From: Candidatus Nomurabacteria bacterium
GTDB taxonomy: Bacteria > Patescibacteriota > Minisyncoccia > Phycocordibacterales > UBA9973
Reading direction: 5' to 3'
NCBI GenBank assembly: GCA_026395995.1
Contig: JAPLXQ010000010.1
Location: 146,400-210,399, forward strand
DNA: 64,000 nucleotides
Shown: positions 5,984 through 29,111 of the stretch, piece after piece
Layout of the letters: each line of letters starts with the position of its first letter
Numbering within the stretch: position 1 is the first letter of the stretch
Made by a program: the position numbers and the translations under genes
Notes under the pieces: generated by a model
Database searches by the model: none
The model's input: the letters and a program-made list of their open reading frames with translations, nothing else
Told to the model about the DNA's origin: nothing

Positions 5984-8900
5984 ATGAAAACATTAAACAC
6001 AACAGATTTCGATTACATTACATTAAGTTTAGCTTCTCCTGAACAAATCAAGGAGTGGTCATACGGAGAAGTCACAAAAGCAGAAACTATCAACTATCGT
6101 ACAGGTAGAAGTGAAAGATCTGGTCTTTTCGACGAAAGAATTTTCGGCCCAGAAAAAGATTATGAATGTTACTGTGGAAAATACAAGCGTATTCGTTATA
6201 AGGATATTATTTGTGAAAAGTGTGGAGTTGAAGTCACTCGCTCTATCGTTCGCCGTGAACGTATGGGTCATATCGAATTGGCTACACCAGTAGCACACAT
6301 TTGGTTCCTTCGTGGCGTACCATCTCGTATGAGTATTCTTTTAAACGTAACTGTCTCAGATCTTGAGAAGGTTGTTTATTTTGCTGGTTATATCGTCACA
6401 AAAGTCTACGAAGAAGAGAAAGAAAAAATTATTGAAAACTTAGACCGAGAATATAAAGCTAAAGTTAAAAATTCTGCTGATGAAGATACAAAAGAAAAAT
6501 TAAAGATTCTTCTTTCTTCTACTAAAAAAGAAATTGGTGAAATTTATGAAGGAAAGGTTTTGAATGAAATTTCTTTCCATCATTATTCTTTAAAATATGG
6601 AACATGTTTTGAAGCCAATATCGGAGCTGAAGCTATTTATTCTATTTTCAAGAATCTTGATTTAAATAAATTAAAAATTCATACAGAAAAAATAATAGAA
6701 AAGGCTAGTGTTATCGAAAAGGAGAAAATGCAAAAAAGACTTTCTCTTATTCGCGCAATGCTTTATTCAAAGATGCGTCCTGAATGGATGTTCTTATCTA
6801 TTATTCCAGTTATACCACCAGTTCTACGTCCGATGGTGGCTCTTGAAGGTGGAAGACATGCAACTTCAGACTTAAATGATTTGTATCGTCGCGTGATCAA
6901 TAGAAATAATCGTTTGAAGAAATTGAAAGAAATCAATGCTCCAGACGTCATTCTCCGAAATGAAAAAAGAATTATTCAAGAAGCAGTAGATGCTTTGATT
7001 GATAACTCTATAGCAAAACAAGGTGACTCTGCTGCGATGAGTCAATCACAAAAGAGAGCTTTGAAATCTCTTTCTGATAACTTGAAATCAAAACAAGGTC
7101 TCTTCCGTCAAAACCTTCTCGGTAAACGTGTGGACTATTCTGGACGTTCTGTTATCGTTGTCGGTCCTCAATTAAAACTCAATCAATGTGGTTTGCCAAA
7201 ACACATGGCACTTGAACTTTTCCGCCCATTCGTTATTTCAAAAATATTACAAGCAGAACTTGCTTTCAATATTCGTGGCGCTAACAAATTAATTGAAGAA
7301 GGTGTCCCAGAAGTTTGGGCAATGCTTGAAGAAGTTATTCAAGGTAAGTACGTTCTTTTAAACCGTGCTCCTACATTGCACCGTCTTGGTATTCAAGCTT
7401 TCAATCCTATTTTGATTGAAGGAAATGCTCTTCAAGTTCATCCACTTGTTTGTCAGGCTTTCAATGCTGACTTCGATGGAGACCAGATGGCTGTCTATGT
7501 TCCACTTTCTGAAGAAGCTCAATGGGAAGCAAAAGAATTGATGGCTGCTAATAAAAACTTATTAAAACCACAAAACGGAGATCCTATTGTGAACCCTCGT
7601 ATGGATATGGTTCTTGGTTCTTACTGGATGACAAAAGATGTCGATGGTGAAAAAGGTGAAGGTAAATATTTTGCTGGTCCAAATTCTGCTGTCATGGCTT
7701 ATGAACACGGAGTGCTTGCTCTTCGTGCAAAAATCAAAATCATGGGTACTGACACACAAAGATATTCAAAATTTGAAGGAAAAATATTCGAAACAACTGT
7801 CGGAAGAATACTTTTCAATAGTATTTTGCCAAGTGATTTTTCTTATTTAAACGAAGAAATGAACGTTAAAAGACTTTCATCTTTGGTTGATGAATTGATC
7901 ATGCACTATGGTATTGATGCTACTCCACCAATCTTGGATAAGATTAAAAATTTCGGTTACAAATATTCTACAATCTCTGGTACTACTTGGGGTATTGATA
8001 ACGTGAAGGTTCCAGAAGAGAAAAAAGGTATAGTAGCAGCTGGTAAAAAAGCTCAAGAAGAAGTGGTGGGTCAATGGAAAGATGGTCTTCTTTCAGAAGA
8101 TGAAAAATACCAAAAAGTTCAAGAAATCTGGACTCATGCTAAAAAAGAACTTGAAAAAGTTCTTCCTGGAACTCTAGATAAAAATGGTTCAACTTATGAC
8201 CTCTTTACTTCAGGAGCCCGCGGTACAATGACATCACTTTCACAGATGACAGGTATGAAGGGTCTTATTCAAAACAACCAAGGACGAACAATTGAATTTC
8301 CAGTCATTCCTTCTTATATTGAAGGTCTATCACCACTTGAATATTTCATTACTACTCATGGAGCTCGTAAAGGAGCCTCTGATACCGCTTTGAACACTGC
8401 TAAAGCTGGATACTTGACACGTCGTCTAGTAGATGTGTCTCAAGACGTTGTGATTACAGAAGAAGATTGTGGAACAAAAGAAGGAAAGACTGTCAGTAAA
8501 GAAAATATTTCTGGAATTGAAATTTCATTATCAAAAAATCTTCGTGGACGTGTTCTTGCTGGAGATATAAAAGATGAAGAAGGAAAAGTTCTTTATAAAA
8601 AAGGATTCTTAATTACAAAAGAAGAAGCTTTAGTGATTGAAAAAATTGGTGTCAAAGAAGCTTTTGTTCGTTCTCCACTTACTTGTAAAACAATTCATGG
8701 ATTATGTCAGCAATGTTACGGTCTCGACTTGGGTCGTAACCACTTAGTCGATCTTGGTGAAGCAGTAGGAATTATTGCTGCTCAAGCTATCGGTGAACCA
8801 GGAACACAGCTTACACTTCGTACATTCCACGCCGGAGGTGTCGCGGGTGTCGATATTACTGCTGGTCTTCCTCGTATCGAAGAAATTTTCGAAAGAAGAA

Positions 8901-11358: not shown

Positions 11359-12606
11359 ATGAAAAAAACAAAAGTAAAAAAAGTAATAAAAAAACCAGCA
11401 AAAAAAGTTTCCAAACCTGTGAAAAAGGTGGTTAAAAAGGTTGCAAAAAAGATAGATAAAAAAACAAAAGTAGTTGTAAAAAAGGTTAAGAAAGAGGCTG
11501 TAAAAAAAGTTGCAGTCAAAAAATTAAATACAGGTGATAAAAAAGCTCAATTTTTAGATGCTAAAGCTACTGAGCTTATAGAAAAAGGACGCAAGCGTGG
11601 TTTTATTACTTATGATGAACTTTTGAAAACTTTTCCTGATATTGAAAATAACATTCTTTTCTTAGATGAGCTTTATGATAAATTTAATGTAGCCGGTATT
11701 GATGTTCTTGAAGGTGGAAATTTATTGGATCTTGATGCTTTAGAGAAAGATAAAGATTTGAATAAGTCTACAATGCATGATTCTATTCAAATGTATTTGA
11801 AAGAAATTGGTCAATACTCACTTATTTATGCTAGTGAAGAAAAAGATTTAGCGAAGAGAATTGAAAAGGGGGATGAAGAAGCAAAGAATTTACTGGCTCG
11901 TGCGAACCTTCGTCTTGTGGTTTCTATCGCTAAAAAATACGTAGGACGTAGTGCAGACCTTACTTTGCTTGATTTGATTCAAGAAGGAAATTTGGGTCTT
12001 TTTAAGGCTGTTGAAAAATTTGACTGGACTAAGGGTTATAAGTTTTCTACTTATGCGACTTGGTGGATTCGTCAATCTATCACTCGTGCTTTAGCTGATC
12101 AAAGTCGCACTATTCGTATTCCTGTGCACATGGTAGAAACAATTTCAAAATATAAACAAGTTCACCGTCGTCTTTCTCAAGACCTTGGACGTGAACCTCT
12201 TTCAGAAGAAATAGCTACAGAAATGGGGATTGATGTTGAAAAAGTTCATACAATTGAAAGTATTTCTCAAGAGACTATTTCCCTCGAGCAACCAGTCGGA
12301 GATGATGATGATAAATCAACACTCGAAAACTTCGTGGCTGATGATAAGATACTACGTCCTGATCAAGAATCTTCACGTCGTATCCTCGCTGATCAAATCA
12401 AAGAAGTTCTAGATGAACTTAATCCAAAGGAAAGAAAAATTCTTGAAATGCGTTATGGGCTGATGGATGGAATTCAGCATACTCTTGAGAGAGTAGGGGA
12501 AGAATTCGGTGTCACTCGTGAACGTATCCGTCAAATCGAAGCAAAAGTTCATGAAAAGCTACGACAGCATGAAAAAATCGCAAGACTTAAAAATTATTTT
12601 GATTAA
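11359..12606 (+). CDS. rpoD: RNA polymerase sigma-70 factor RpoD with a ~55-aa KK/AK/PV-rich, histone-H1-like N-terminal extension
   Basis: Regions 1.2-4 conserved ([35 protein letters not shown], region 4 [18 protein letters not shown]). Confidence 0.9.
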
Positions 12607-12612
12607 AACACA

Positions 12613-12691
12613 ACCCCTCCCGACCTCCCCTTATCAAGGGAGGAGGAAATGCTAAGCCTTTAATTCCCCCTGACAAGGGGGTTAGGGGGTT
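12613..12691. repeat. degenerate copy of the GC-rich compound palindromic element (intergenic, after rpoD)
   Basis: cccctcccgacctccccttatcaagggaggagg and ccccctgacaagggggttaggggg hairpins resemble the right arm of the uvrA/uvrB/uvrC copies. Confidence 0.5.
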
Positions 12692-12725
12692 GTATTATCC
12701 TTATTTTATAAGGGCTTTTTAGTGC

Positions 12726-12755
12726 TTGACAGAATGGTATTAAATATGCTATCAT
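12726..12755 (+). promoter_or_regulatory. sigma70-like promoter candidate (TTGACA, 18-nt spacer, TATCAT) upstream of the DGR target gene
   Basis: Hexamers read from the sequence, ~65 nt upstream of the ATG at 12820. Confidence 0.3.
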
Positions 12756-12819
12756 ATAAGTTGAAATAGTATAGTGCTATTTTATAACAGAATAATAAAC
12801 AAAAAAAAGATTACAGATC

Positions 12820-13536
12820 ATGAAAAATGAAACAAAATCTGACAGACTGAGCTTTGCACAGCTGGGTGTCCTTGCAGGAATCATTATGGAATTCCTTGCA
12901 GTAATGTTCAATGCTCCACAGCTAAAATATTGGCTTGAGCATAAAACGGAGTTAAAGAAAAGGCTTCGTGAAGTTTTTAAAATTGTAGATGAGTATGTCG
13001 ACATTCGTATAGAATGGGCTACTTTCTACAAAAAGAATTTTGACTGGGAAGTAGATTTCAGTCATGTAATAATTCCAACAATGCCGACTATTGGTAAATG
13101 GAGATTATTATTTATTCCGAAAGGAATGAGACCACAGCTTGCTTTTGAAGTTTGTACAAAGCTTTTTAAAACAAGTAAGTATTGTGATAACTTGGATGAT
13201 GCGATTGGTAAAAACATTCGTACAACAGGTGAACATTATGCTGTGTGGGTTCGTGACGAAGTTGAACCAGATTCAGAAACATTGGGCAAATCAACTCGCC
13301 AAGCGGATCCTGATATGAAAGTTGGAATCACATTGCTTGAAGGAATTATTTTTGAAATTAAGTATTTTACTGAAACCGGTAAACATCTTAATATTAAAGG
13401 AGTTACTTTTTGTAGCGGTTCTCGCATTTCTGGTGGCAATGTTCCGAGCGTGAGTTGGAGCGATGGCAAGTTCGAGGTGTACTGGAACGACTTGGACAAT
13501 TCGGTTTCGTATTATGGTATCCGTTCAGCAGTTTAA
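12820..13536 (+). CDS. DGR variable target protein (238 aa). The C-terminal ~40 aa is encoded by the VR; hydrophobic N-terminal segment; no other recognisable domain
   Basis: VR lies in-frame in the last 40 codons. C-terminus CSGSRISGGNVPSVSWSDGKFEVYWNDLDNSVSYYGIRSAV. Variable codons correspond to AAY/GAY/AAG codons in the TR. Confidence 0.8.
   Translation: MKNETKSDRLSFAQLGVLAGIIMEFLAVMFNAPQLKYWLEHKTELKKRLREVFKIVDEYVDIRIEWATFYKKNFDWEVDFSHVIIPTMPTIGKWRLLFIPKGMRPQLAFEVCTKLFKTSKYCDNLDDAIGKNIRTTGEHYAVWVRDEVEPDSETLGKSTRQADPDMKVGITLLEGIIFEIKYFTETGKHLNIKGVTFCSGSRISGGNVPSVSWSDGKFEVYWNDLDNSVSYYGIRSAV
13415..13534 (+). repeat. DGR variable repeat (VR), 120 bp
   Basis: Direct repeat of 13797-13916 with 13 mismatches, all at TR adenines. 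The 3' end (ggtatccgttcag) is conserved and may serve as the homing-initiation sequence. Confidence 0.85.
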
Positions 13537-13564
13537 TCTTTTATTTTTTTAACTTTTAACCTTA

Positions 13565-13600
13565 ATCAGTGTTTGCTATGCAAACACTGATTTTTTTATG
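13565..13600 (+). terminator. hairpin plus T7 30 nt downstream of VR (terminator and/or DGR target-recognition cruciform)
   Basis: atcagtgtttgc-tatg-caaacactgat then ttttttt. Confidence 0.5.
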
Positions 13601-13796
13601 CTAAAATATACTCGGCTGTTAAATTGATTTGGCTTCGGCTAGATAACAATTTGCCATATAAAGAAACTGCCTGCAATTAATAAAGCATAGATAATTCAGT
13701 TTTGTATTGATGCACCACATTGCTCGTTGTGAAGCGAGATAACTCAGAAAATTTGGAAACAGATTTTCGGTGAAATGGAATATTTATTGCGGTAGA

Positions 13797-13916
13797 GCGG
13801 TTCTCGCAATTCTGATGGCAATGTTCCGAACGTGAATTGGAACGATGACAAGTTCAAGGTGAACTGGAACAACTTGGACAATTCGAATTCGAATTATGGT
13901 ATCCGTTCAGAAGTTT
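13797..13916 (+). repeat. DGR template repeat (TR), 120 bp, same orientation as VR
   Basis: About 35 A residues, of which 13 differ in the VR (to G x8, T x4, C x1). In the VR reading frame the TR carries many AAC/AAT codons. Confidence 0.85.
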
Positions 13917-13917
13917 C

Positions 13918-14262
13918 TCATAACAATCCGCTCTGTTTGGGCGGATTTTGTGTTTGAGTATATTTGAGCCAGCCATTTATCATCTTTGAAATTTCTTGAA
14001 GTTTCAATTCTATTTGTAAATATATAGTTTCGGTAATTATTTTTAATTCATATTCTGTGCGGATAAGTTGTTTCAATGTTTCTGTTTGTAGCCTTGCTTG
14101 TTTAAGTAGAATAATTTTATCTACCTTTGATTCAAGTGATGCACTAATGAGCAACGAAAAACTTTTTAAAAATTCTTTTTCAATATAGTTATGTAGTCCA
14201 AGTTTGTCACGTTTCGGTAATTTATTTCCAATTAAATAAATATAAGCGTATAATTTACGCAT
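13918..14262 (-). CDS. avd: Avd-like accessory variability determinant (basic four-helix-bundle / 23S rRNA IVS protein family)
   Basis: YAYIYLIGNKLPKRDKLGLHNYIEKE fits the KFPKxxxYxL motif of this family; ~114 aa and basic. The ORF is also open back to an upstream ATG at 14322, which would overlap the RT start; the start at 14262 is preferred. Confidence 0.7.
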   Translation of the reverse strand: MRKLYAYIYLIGNKLPKRDKLGLHNYIEKEFLKSFSLLISASLESKVDKIILLKQARLQTETLKQLIRTEYELKIITETIYLQIELKLQEISKMINGWLKYTQTQNPPKQSGLL

Positions 14263-14265
14263 CTT

Positions 14266-15393
14266 ATGGACAACTGGAATATCAAAGTCGTTGGGGGGGG
14301 TGCTAATCAAAGTCTCCTTCATAATATCGTAAGTTTACCAAATTTACTGCAAGCATGGAAGGAATTTAAAAGGTGTAAAAATTCCAAAAAAGACATTGCT
14401 GAATTTGAATTTAATTTAGAAAATAATTTATTTTCCTTGTACAGTAATTTAATAAATAAAACATACATACCAGACCCATACCAAGCATTCTTTGTTTATG
14501 ATCCAAAACGACGACATATACACAAAGCTACAGTCAAAGATAGAGTTTTACATCAAGCTATTTTTAAGATTTTATATCCAATATTTGATAAGCATTTTAT
14601 TTATGATTCTTATTCATCACGCAAAGGAAAGGGAACTCATAAGGCGTCACAACAGCTTTTTATAGTATTAAGGAAAGAGAGCAAAAACTGGCGAGTGCCA
14701 GTTTTTGCTCTTAAGTGTGACATTAGAAAATTTTTTGATTCTGTAGATCACAACATTTTATTTGAGTTAATAAAAAAGAAAATAACAGATGAAGAAACTT
14801 TAACTTTAATTAAACAAATTTTAGATAGCTTTGAAGTTAAAAATAAAATGTTAACAAACTCAGCGATAGCAGAAAGTGTTAACATTTCAAGACGAGGTTT
14901 ACCTCTTGGTAATGTAACGAGCCAGCTTTTTGCAAATATCTACTTAAATGAATTAGATCAATTCGTGAAACATAACTTGAAAGTAAAAAGTTATTTTAGA
15001 TATGCAGATGATTTTGTGTTGCTTTCTAGAGATAGAAAAATTTTAGAAAACTACATATTAGAAATTCAGGATTTTTTAGATAAAAATTTAAAATTACAAT
15101 TACACCCAAATAAAATTTCAATAAGAAAAGTAACACAAGGGATTGATTTTGTGGGATATGTAATTTTACCTGATACAGTGGTATTAAGAACTAAAACAAA
15201 AAAGAGAATTTTTAAAAAGTTAAAAACTGTAAAAGACAAATTAGTTAACAAAAAATCAACTAAAGAAAACTTTAATCAAACTAAAACTTCCTATTTAGGA
15301 ATTCTTACTCATTGTAAAGATAAGGAAATTAAAAGAGGGATAAACAGAATTTTATTGCAATGCTTTATCAATTTTGCCAGTGACCATCAATAG
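14266..15393 (+). CDS. DGR reverse transcriptase
   Basis: RT motifs: PKRRHIHKATVKDRVLHQAI (1/2), ALKCDIRKFFDSVDH (3), motif 4 GLPLGNVTSQLFANIYL with the DGR-specific [ILV]GxxxSQ signature, YADDFVLL (5). The N-terminal region aligns with the Bordetella phage bRT pattern (...YDPKRR.I.KA...DRV.HQAI...IFD..FIYDSY..RKGKGTH.A). G8 homopolymer at 14293-14300. Confidence 0.9.
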   Translation: MDNWNIKVVGGGANQSLLHNIVSLPNLLQAWKEFKRCKNSKKDIAEFEFNLENNLFSLYSNLINKTYIPDPYQAFFVYDPKRRHIHKATVKDRVLHQAIFKILYPIFDKHFIYDSYSSRKGKGTHKASQQLFIVLRKESKNWRVPVFALKCDIRKFFDSVDHNILFELIKKKITDEETLTLIKQILDSFEVKNKMLTNSAIAESVNISRRGLPLGNVTSQLFANIYLNELDQFVKHNLKVKSYFRYADDFVLLSRDRKILENYILEIQDFLDKNLKLQLHPNKISIRKVTQGIDFVGYVILPDTVVLRTKTKKRIFKKLKTVKDKLVNKKSTKENFNQTKTSYLGILTHCKDKEIKRGINRILLQCFINFASDHQ

Positions 15394-16113
15394 TGGTTCA
15401 GCGCCGTCGATTGTGTCGAGGACTTTGCCGTCTTTGATGATGAACCCTTTTGGTGTGCCGTTTACTCCAGCCTTACCACCTTCTTCGGTAGAATCGACAA
15501 TGGCTTTTGAATATTTACCAGAATCTAAACATGTATTAAATATGGTTGTATCAAGACCTAAACCTTTAGCAAAAGATTTCAAGTTTTTATCTGCAAAGGC
15601 ACCTTTATTTTCACCTTGTTGATGAGTGAAGAGATAATCATGATATTCCCAGAATTTATTTTGATCACCAGCACAACGAGCTGCTTCAGCTGATTTGACT
15701 GATTCAGCTCCTAGGAAAGCAAAATCTCTTGAGATTAATGAGATTTTTCCATTCTTGATATAAGAATCATTTAAACCTTGCTCAGTCTCACTAAAGAATT
15801 TCCCACAAAATGGACACTGAAAGTCTGTGTACAAAATGACAGAAATAGGGGCATTTATGTTTCCTAGAATTCTATCAGTATTTGAGACAGGGGTGGGTGT
15901 GTCTGTCTTTTTAGCATTATTTTTTCCAGTATCTTCTACTTTAGCTACTTTGTCTGAGTTGTCACTATTACTACCACCTGTCAACCAATAAAAACCTATT
16001 AAAATAGAAGCTGAAATTAAAACTCCAGTTATGATAATAGCGACGGGTGTTGTCAATTCAAACTCTTTTTTATCACCGATTTGGACCACTTTTAAATCTT
16101 CATTATTTTCCAT
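15352..16113 (-). CDS. DsbA-family thiol:disulfide oxidoreductase, membrane-anchored
   Basis: N-terminal TM helix; thioredoxin CPFC active site (DFQCPFCGKF); DsbA-like length. The 3' end overlaps the RT 3' end by 42 bp, convergent. Confidence 0.75.
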   Translation of the reverse strand: MENNEDLKVVQIGDKKEFELTTPVAIIITGVLISASILIGFYWLTGGSNSDNSDKVAKVEDTGKNNAKKTDTPTPVSNTDRILGNINAPISVILYTDFQCPFCGKFFSETEQGLNDSYIKNGKISLISRDFAFLGAESVKSAEAARCAGDQNKFWEYHDYLFTHQQGENKGAFADKNLKSFAKGLGLDTTIFNTCLDSGKYSKAIVDSTEEGGKAGVNGTPKGFIIKDGKVLDTIDGAEPLLMVTGKIDKALQ

Positions 16114-28960: not shown

Positions 28961-29111
28961 TCCGGATTAGCTCAGCTGGTTAGAGCGCCTGACTGGATAA
29001 GTTTTGTAGATTTAGTAAGTTAGTTCGAAATAATTTATTAAACTCTTTCTTGGTTTACCAAGGCAACCTTATTTTATCAGGAGGTCATGGGTTCAAGTCC
29101 TTTATCTGGAG
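28961..29111 (+). tRNA. tRNA gene interrupted by a ~77-84-nt AT-rich insertion in the anticodon loop. D-arm, variable loop and T-arm resemble tRNA-Ile
   Basis: Acceptor TCCGGAT/ATCTGGA, D-arm GCTCAGCTGGTTAGAGC, anticodon stem CCTGA...TCAGG separated by 84 nt, variable loop AGGTC, T-loop TTCAAGT. The isotype cannot be fixed by eye. Confidence 0.5.

Follow-up and report, generated by a model that had tools for sequence, protein, structure and literature searches.

A diversity-generating retroelement of the Patescibacteria type in a Candidatus Nomurabacteria genome and the structured RNA beside its template repeat

The locus and its repeat pair

The stretch of DNA considered here (the window) comprises 64,000 nt of a Candidatus Nomurabacteria assembly (GCA_026395995.1, contig JAPLXQ010000010.1, positions 146,400-210,399 of the forward strand). 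It carries what is very probably a complete, chromosomal and recently active diversity-generating retroelement (DGR) of the type found in the Candidate Phyla Radiation (CPR, or Patescibacteria). Open reading frames (ORFs) and Pfam matches give the cassette the order target (+), template repeat (+), avd (-), reverse transcriptase (+), with these principal parts:

12820-13536, + strand: DGR target gene, 238 residues, with a helical N-terminal part (about residues 12-74) and a C-terminal domain of the C-type-lectin/FGE fold (about residues 94-238)
13414-13534, + strand: variable repeat (VR), the last 40 codons of the target gene, delimited by base-by-base alignment and a repeat search
13796-13916, + strand: template repeat (TR), non-coding, with 36 A among its 121 bases
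13918-14322, - strand: avd (accessory variability determinant), 134 residues from the first ATG, matching Pfam PF22296 (bAvd) at 47.3 bits with a cut-off of 40
14266-15393, + strand: DGR reverse transcriptase (RT), 375 residues, matching Pfam PF00078 (RVT_1) at 89.5 bits, with LGNVTSQ in motif 4 and YADD in motif 5

Compared base by base, VR and TR form an ungapped direct repeat of 121 nt with 13 mismatches, at VR positions 13427, 13433, 13448, 13454, 13460, 13466, 13474, 13480, 13489, 13504, 13505, 13510 and 13529. At each of the 13, TR has A where VR has G (8 times), T (4) or C (1); the hypergeometric probability that 13 of 13 differences fall on TR adenines is 2.4e-8. An independent repeat search recovers the same pair (family D1, 89%). 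When TR adenines were ignored, no further copy of TR, and so no second VR, was found on either strand of the 64-kb window. Read in the VR frame, the TR codons at the variable sites are AAT, GAT, AAC, GAC and AAG. A preliminary description of this DNA had given the repeat as 120 bp (13415-13534 and 13797-13916), with 13 differences, all on TR adenines (8 G, 4 T and 1 C in VR), and AAC/AAT/GAC/AAG codons at the variable sites. The pair, the count and the codons stand after re-alignment; the repeat is one base longer, and the difference at 13529 is probably not a product of mutagenesis (see below).

VR lies at the 3′ end of its gene, within a fold that tolerates variation. The structural model of the target (predicted local distance difference test score 89.7) matches FGE, TvpA, Mtd, TaqVP and C-type lectins, and so bears out the lectin-like C-terminus that had been expected. 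Compared with TvpA (2y3c), Mtd (1yu0) and TaqVP (5vf4), the target has 11-13% identity, a compact domain of about 145 residues and a helical N-terminal part without a match. The protein has no Pfam or NCBIfam match. An identical protein, MCX6755407.1, belongs to a Candidatus Nomurabacteria metagenome-assembled genome (MAG), and there are at least 148 homologues of about 240 residues, every one of them with a source name coming from Patescibacteria; these small lectin-fold proteins make up a family for which databases hold no model. In an alignment of 52 homologues the first ~195 residues are well conserved, and variation falls at discrete C-terminal positions within the last 40. The consensus of the VR-encoded segment is CSGSRxSDGxVPxAxWxxDGxFxVxWxxLDxSxSxxGIRSAV, where x marks free variation, and the x positions correspond to TR codons that contain adenine.

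The closest relative of the RT among solved structures is the RT of the Bordetella phage BPP-1 DGR (bRT, 8ub7; E = 1.5e-36 over aligned residues 13-319), in which GIPIGSLTSQLFANVY stands opposite GLPLGNVTSQLFANIY of the window protein, and group II intron RTs follow at E = 2.4e-23 and weaker. Together with LGNVTSQ and YADD, which fit the DGR patterns [ILV]GxxxSQ and YxDD, this relationship points to an RT of the DGR clade, in agreement with the preliminary description, which had assigned the same ORF and motifs to a DGR and had proposed the comparison with other RT classes. At least 554 relatives of this RT are present in metagenomes.

An Avd protein is present in most DGRs. The product of the ORF next to TR matches the bAvd family above the Pfam cut-off and scores 51.6 bits against the NCBIfam equivalog NF033474, under its cut-off of 80; it had been recognised beforehand as Avd-like, and this identity holds, to which must be added that the gene is encoded on the minus strand. 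It runs towards TR, its stop codon falling one base past the repeat, and stands head to head with the RT gene. From its first ATG, avd overlaps the start of the RT gene by 57 nt (region 14262-14322); from Met21 (14262) it encodes 114 residues and leaves a 3-nt gap, and gene callers took this shorter form in contigs of a sister lineage. With either start there is no intergenic room for divergent avd and RT promoters.

Evidence of recent activity comes from that sister lineage. The 90%-identity cluster of the window protein has a second member (P0121) with 16 residue differences, 14 of them in VR, and the contigs encoding it (L113-L116), from four other samples, show the same locus in the same context. 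Over 12700-14400 the window and the sister lineage differ at 27 positions, of which 19 lie in the 121-nt VR. All 19 fall at TR adenines (P = 1.2e-12); by contrast, TR itself is identical (0/121), as is the 5′ domain of the adjoining RNA described below (0 differences), and the rest of the target has 3 differences in 594 nt. Because the VR differences are confined to TR adenines within a block that is otherwise ~99.5% identical and has an unchanged TR, we conclude that mutagenic homing occurred after the two lineages last shared this block. VR thus varies while TR does not in a comparison between lineages, which is the outcome looked for when the preliminary description proposed a test on related genomes. 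In two other clusters of homologues at 90% identity (12 and 27 members), differences are likewise almost only in VR. The earlier proposal of a mutagenic-retrohoming cassette that varies the C-terminus of the target is borne out by the adenine-specific mismatches, the RT, Avd, the fold and the VR of the sister lineage.

A scan of one genome per species identified 31 related loci, all in Patescibacteria MAGs. In ten of them the cassette has the same order and orientation as in the window, with the strand and position of avd kept, and in nine of these ten the differences between VR and TR are overwhelmingly at TR adenines. In the tenth, L023, an indel spoils the ungapped comparison; after gapped realignment, 12 of 15 differences are at adenines.

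Candidate transcription signals and structured RNA around the template repeat

The sequence between the target gene and TR, and that just past TR, contains a set of features that recur in related loci. They are listed here with the promoter-like sites of the target and RT genes, both of which are consensus matches only:

12726-12755, + strand: promoter-like site of the target gene, TTGACA, 18 nt, TATCAT, with TG ahead of the -10 element; 11 of 12 matches, the best in the region
13528-13535, + strand: octamer GCAGTTTA at the VR 3′ boundary, resembling an initiation of mutagenic homing (IMH) site; 7/8 complementary to the 8-mer at 13663-13670
13537-13563, + strand: pyrimidine-rich tract from stop codon to hairpin, TCTTTTTTCTTTTTATCTTT-like, present after the stop codon in nearly all of loci L001-L031, with or without a cassette
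13564-13592, no strand assigned: perfect 13-bp hairpin with T run, 28 nt past the target stop codon
13597-13602, + strand: -10-like hexamer TATGCT (TATACT in relatives) directly past the hairpin, in the conserved alignment block TTTTTTATAC(T)
13612-13795, + strand: structured 5′ domain of the putative DGR RNA, six helices in ~185 nt directly upstream of TR, delimited by alignments, RNAalifold and a covariance model
13663-13670, + strand: 8-mer GAAACUGC, single-stranded and nearly invariant, between the first stem-loop and the long-range helix
13671-13682, + strand: 5′ strand of the 12-bp long-range helix (helix 3), directly after the 8-mer with no spacer; 11 of 12 pairs changed on both sides, 95.5% paired
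13781-13792, + strand: 3′ strand of the long-range helix, ending 3 nt before TR
13910-13917, + strand: octamer GAAGUUUC at the TR 3′ end, IMH*-like, which pairs with 13663-13670 except at position 2 (7/8)
13925-13947, + strand: 9-bp stem-loop followed by a T run, 8 nt past TR and within the last avd codons (other strand)
14225-14254, + strand: promoter-like site ending 12 nt ahead of the RT ATG

A stem-loop follows VR in other DGRs. The hairpin at 13564-13592 is a candidate for the counterpart of that stem-loop and for the terminator of the target gene; a hairpin of 10-20 bp, with a sequence particular to each locus, occurs at this point in each of the 28 homologous loci whose downstream sequence is long enough, those without a cassette included. 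Directly beyond it, TATGCT is a candidate promoter element for the DGR RNA, judged by its resemblance to a -10 box. The promoter-like site ahead of the RT would yield a nearly leaderless RT mRNA.

The 5′ domain is the best supported of these features. In an RNAalifold prediction from 12 sequences, 27 of 41 pairs show compensatory changes. A covariance model (R1) built on 11 sequences located the domain in another 21 full-length metagenome loci, in each case upstream of the RT gene and on its strand. An alignment of 24 sequences that includes the window has 92.8% of its cells paired, versus 35-47% when the partners are slid by 1-3 columns, and 46 of its 52 pairs are changed on both sides, with support for all six helices. 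Neither the VR-TR spacer nor the sequence past TR matched any Rfam family, be it at gathering thresholds or with E allowed up to 10. In the 18 metagenome loci with a clear TR/VR pair, about 0-9 nt separate the long-range helix from the start of TR/VR homology, and in all 18 a hairpin with a T run, differing in sequence, follows TR. By analogy with other DGRs, the 3′ strand of the long-range helix is a candidate stop for complementary DNA (cDNA) synthesis, and the stem-loop at 13925-13947 a candidate Avd-binding stem-loop, DGR RNA terminator, or both.

These features can be combined into a possible mechanism. A short non-coding RNA would be transcribed from just past the target terminator hairpin and consist of the 185-nt 5′ domain, the 121-nt TR and the 9-bp stem-loop. 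The RT, together with Avd, very probably copies TR into cDNA and misincorporates opposite TR adenines; about a dozen surface positions of the target are thereby re-randomised on a constant scaffold. The 8-mer may fold onto the 3′ end of TR (13910-13917) and prime the cDNA in cis, and the adjoining long-range helix may stop synthesis at the 5′ edge of TR. Still joined to the cDNA, the 8-mer could then pair with the VR boundary GCAGTTT, and not fully with TR; such pairing would send the cDNA to VR and protect TR.

The priming role is suggested by how the 8-mer and the two boundaries vary together. At position 2 the C at VR 13529 pairs with G of the 8-mer and the A in TR does not. At least 23 of 28 loci retain the TR mismatch at this position, the remainder being mis-anchored in the alignment, and VR has C or T opposite the G. 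Five loci possess a variant 8-mer, and in each of them VR carries a compensating change: L039 has GAAACUAC with VR GTAGTT (position 2, A with T), L045 has GAAAUUGC with VR GCAAT, L085 has GAAACUCC with VR GGAGTT (position 2, C with G), L103 has GAUACUGC with VR GCAGTA, and L064 has GGAACUGC with VR GCAGTTCC. The TR base at position 2 is C in L085, and the difference there is therefore not adenine mutagenesis. Six loci have an 8-mer that begins with A, and in five of these TR has T as its final base. Alignments of VR with TR often slip by one base at the boundary junction. Among random 34-nt windows, seven or more pairs arise in 1.75% of trials.

The same reasoning applies to the thirteenth mismatch of the window. 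Because 13529 (C, opposite A at TR 13911) lies inside the boundary octamer, is the same in the window and the sister lineage, and has an equivalent that is nearly always C or T across loci, we read it as a probable fixed boundary difference of the IMH/IMH* type, and the remaining 12 mismatches as products of ordinary adenine mutagenesis. In a DGR, an IMH that differs from the IMH* of TR is expected at the 3′ end of VR, with an inverted repeat after it; the window has an inverted repeat at 13564-13592 and the probably fixed difference 13529/13911, and lacks a GC-rich 14-bp element like that of BPP-1.

The relation of the 8-mer to VR also has a parallel in BPP-1. In the phage genome, the reverse complement of Sp50-56 (GUGGUCA, which ends in the priming adenosine A56) is TGACCAC, identical to VR 118-124, and TR 118-124 reads TGCCCAT. 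Naorem et al. (PMC5703328) reported more extensive pairing of the BPP-1 RNA primer to IMH than to IMH* and proposed this as the basis of the direction of homing; seven TR:Sp base pairs adjoin the initiation site (Handa et al., PMC6182149). In a cryo-electron microscopy structure, two nt past the primer, a strand pairs just upstream of TR and forms the cPRT Stop, and an Avd-binding stem-loop, most often of 9 bp, directly follows TR (Handa et al., bioRxiv 10.1101/2023.10.23.563531). In both systems, an RNA segment has a complement that fits the VR boundary better than the TR boundary, and after this segment comes a strand whose pairing partner lies just upstream of TR. We had considered whether the complementarity of 8-mer and VR is a new kind of RNA-guided target recognition, and rejected the idea, because the same relation exists in BPP-1 and was already noted by Naorem et al.

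On these grounds we lean, with some reserve, towards the view that the RNA of CPR-type DGRs is circularly permuted, such that the cis-priming segment, the stop helix and protein-binding stem-loops would lie 5′ of TR and not in a 3′ spacer, and that the priming segment, and not TR, would specify the last bases of VR. The complementarity could instead be incidental: the 8-mer might be kept for another reason such as protein binding, the boundary GCA/GTA-GTT-TC might be kept to encode Ala/Val-Val-Ser, and priming might take place elsewhere, for example from RNA 3′ of TR that is antisense to avd. This deserves to be taken seriously, although we think it unlikely. The boundary bases are coding, since the consensus of the family closes with GIRSAV-SL; most loci share both the 8-mer and the boundary, leaving only five independent covariation events; and the primer of BPP-1 lies 3′ of TR. 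Incidental pairing does not readily explain, however, why all five variant 8-mers are matched by VR, two of them at position 2 (L039 A/T, L085 C/G), why TR stays mismatched at position 2 whatever its base, or why a first base A in the 8-mer goes with a final T in TR. The helix directly after the 8-mer also closes just before TR, as in BPP-1. A long post-TR spacer antisense to avd was considered separately and set aside, because the terminator-like hairpin right after TR in all loci examined favours a short RNA.

If the 8-mer is indeed both primer and guide to VR, it would provide phylogenetic support for RNA pairing as the means by which cDNA finds VR and spares TR, and the five-locus covariation of 8-mer and VR against a persistent TR mismatch would give the primer-IMH pairing proposed by Naorem et al. 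its first phylogenetic evidence. Engineered DGRs could then in principle be retargeted at their 3′ boundary by altering the 8-mer. The integration step of retrohoming was still called unknown in a 2026 study (PMC12875486).

Known systems, related loci and other explanations

The cassette corresponds to a described class. Wu et al. (2018, PMC5758913) gave the name B3 to the architecture TR-(avd)-RT in which avd is encoded on the reverse strand, and found the layout target-TR-(avd)-RT in 90% of CPR DGRs. Roux et al. (2021, PMC8144416) described a DGR clade that is restricted to Patescibacteria and almost entirely cell-encoded, and whose targets have no recognisable membrane or other domains. The window shares with these CPR B3 DGRs (clade 2 of Roux et al.) the order and orientation of TR, reverse-strand avd and RT, a host from the same group, a chromosomal site, adenine-specific differences, and a small target without a recognisable domain or clear membrane anchor. 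Nothing essential differs; the target family, of ~240 residues, has no Pfam model. Since B3 is the standard CPR layout, the element is a further member of a known DGR class and a typical example of one already common in Patescibacteria.

Compared with the mtd-avd-TR-brt cassette of BPP-1, the window has a homologous RT and Avd, a target with C-type-lectin fold and C-terminal VR, AAY-rich TR codons and a hairpin after VR. Unlike in BPP-1, avd is inverted and placed after TR, the structured RNA with its putative primer lies 5′ of TR (the BPP-1 spacer is 3′), a (GC)14 element is absent, the DGR resides in a cell and not in a phage, and the target is a 238-residue protein and not a tail fibre. Another structured RNA beside a DGR TR is the RT-10 motif (Weinberg et al. 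2017, PMC5737381), for which a part in priming was also proposed; in contrast to RT-10 and other RT-associated motifs of that study, the window RNA lies upstream of TR and is without an Rfam match.

As an element, then, the locus is one more well-documented, recently active DGR of an abundant Patescibacteria class, and leaves knowledge of DGRs unchanged. The comparative data are worth more, in particular the covariation-supported RNA domain upstream of TR and the indication that in some genomes one cassette serves two targets. About 20 of the 31 loci contain a target without avd or RT within 6 kb. One of these targets, L020, lies ~10 kb from the L023 cassette on the same contig (CAVSGX010000007.1) and matches the TR of L023, with 16 of 21 differences at TR adenines. 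It is a second target copy without a cassette of its own, and the VR that adjoins the cassette in L023 has a 1-nt indel. A single cassette appears to serve both targets on this contig; because L020 matches the L023 TR and differs from it mostly at adenines, at least some of the cassette-less targets appear to be second targets served in trans.

Two further loci, L021 (6808-6900) and L017 (~6015-6040), have a target without TR, avd or RT. After the hairpin, L021 keeps the first 110 nt and L017 ~30 nt of the 5′ domain of the DGR RNA, and both look like remnants of deleted cassettes.

Several points weigh against the interpretation of the window as a complete and recently active DGR, or against parts of its proposed workings. 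The evidence for activity compares lineages from different samples and not reads of one population. VR has no GC-rich IMH like the 14-bp element of BPP-1. The ends of the DGR RNA are predicted from the -10-like box and the terminator-like hairpin. The RT could be transcribed from its own promoter-like site at 14225-14254 or by read-through of the hairpin. The case for a priming role of GAAACUGC is built from complementarity, analogy and the covariation seen in five loci, and the VR boundary bases also encode Ala or Val (GCA, GTA), so that selection on the protein could explain part of the position-2 pattern. Finally, a hydrophobic helix at target residues 12-30 has a 19-residue hydropathy that averages 1.6 over the family and is borderline for a membrane anchor; where CPR DGR targets sit in the cell is an open question in general (Roux et al., PMC8144416).

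A related question is whether the DGR belongs to a prophage or other mobile element and varies a phage receptor-binding protein. The target occurs in different contexts across genomes, and none of the flanking genes of the window recurs in the 31 genome loci; context therefore says nothing on the function of the target. Divergence from sister contig L113 over 12100-16100 is mosaic, at ~10% in the 3′ end of rpoD, 26% in the rpoD-target spacer, ~0.5% over 12700-14400 (VR excepted), ~9% in the RT body (14400-15500) and near zero past 15500. The mosaic suggests that a recent recombination moved the block of promoter, target, RNA, TR and avd as a unit, and together with the varied contexts it suggests horizontal exchange of the cassette. 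Against a mobile element, the cassette has housekeeping genes on both sides: rpoB, rpoC, dnaG and rpoD lie directly upstream, as the preliminary description had stated, and downstream follow genes for a DsbA-like protein, DUF378, a GT2 glycosyltransferase and a Mur ligase. Neither an integrase gene nor a phage structural gene nor a tRNA adjoins it, consistent with the earlier impression that no obvious prophage was present; in the sister lineage the cassette holds the same position; and the CPR clade is almost entirely cell-encoded, as noted above. We regard a mobile-element origin as very improbable.

No more credible is a decayed relic, in which the repeat pair and ORFs would be left over from a once-active DGR. 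Decay does occur among related loci, as in L010, which keeps only fragments of avd and RT, in L021, with its truncated RNA and neither TR nor RT, and in the VR indel of L023; and Roux et al. (PMC8144416) reported lower apparent activity for the CPR clade. In the window, by contrast, all ORFs are intact and the RT has its catalytic motifs, and the sister lineage shows 19 VR differences, every one at a TR adenine, in a 1.7-kb block that is otherwise ~99.5% identical and has the same TR.

An RT of some other class (group II intron, retron or the defence-related DRT/UG RTs), with the repeat as an unrelated duplication, can be practically dismissed: the NCBIfam matches, which include no DGR RT model, are led by the group II intron RT/maturase at 168 bits, followed by Drt3a (73), retron St85 RT (60) and Drt2 (47), but all fall far under their cut-offs (300, 200, 235 and 390 bits, respectively), Rfam finds no group II intron or retron RNA, the closest solved structure is the BPP-1 DGR RT, motif 4 reads LGNVTSQ, and the RT gene is accompanied by avd and by an adenine-specific TR/VR pair.

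Minor features of the window

Just 3′ of rpoD, at 12614-12690, there are G/C-rich inverted repeats (CCCCTCCCGACCTCCCC...GGGAGGAGG and CCCCCTGACAAGGGGGTTAGGGGG) of terminator-like character in a region that is otherwise 33% GC. This stretch is the most divergent part in the comparison with the sister lineage, with 54 differences in 100 nt.

Within the RT gene, a perfect 15-bp palindrome with a 4-nt loop (14678-14711, encoding ESKNWRVPVFAL) seemed non-random and was considered as a part of the system, then rejected, because it is absent from that place in eight related RTs. Its residues SKNW...PVFA are kept in the closest three related RTs, and L003 has TFV for PVFA. The palindrome seems to arise from codon choice, AGC AAA AAC TGG being mirrored by CCA GTT TTT GCT.

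Genes for tRNAs with a long insertion or intron have been reported from CPR genomes. At 28961-29111 (+ strand) the window has an Rfam tRNA match that extends over 151 nt (45.8 bits) and is not called by ARAGORN; it may be a tRNA gene with such an insertion or intron.

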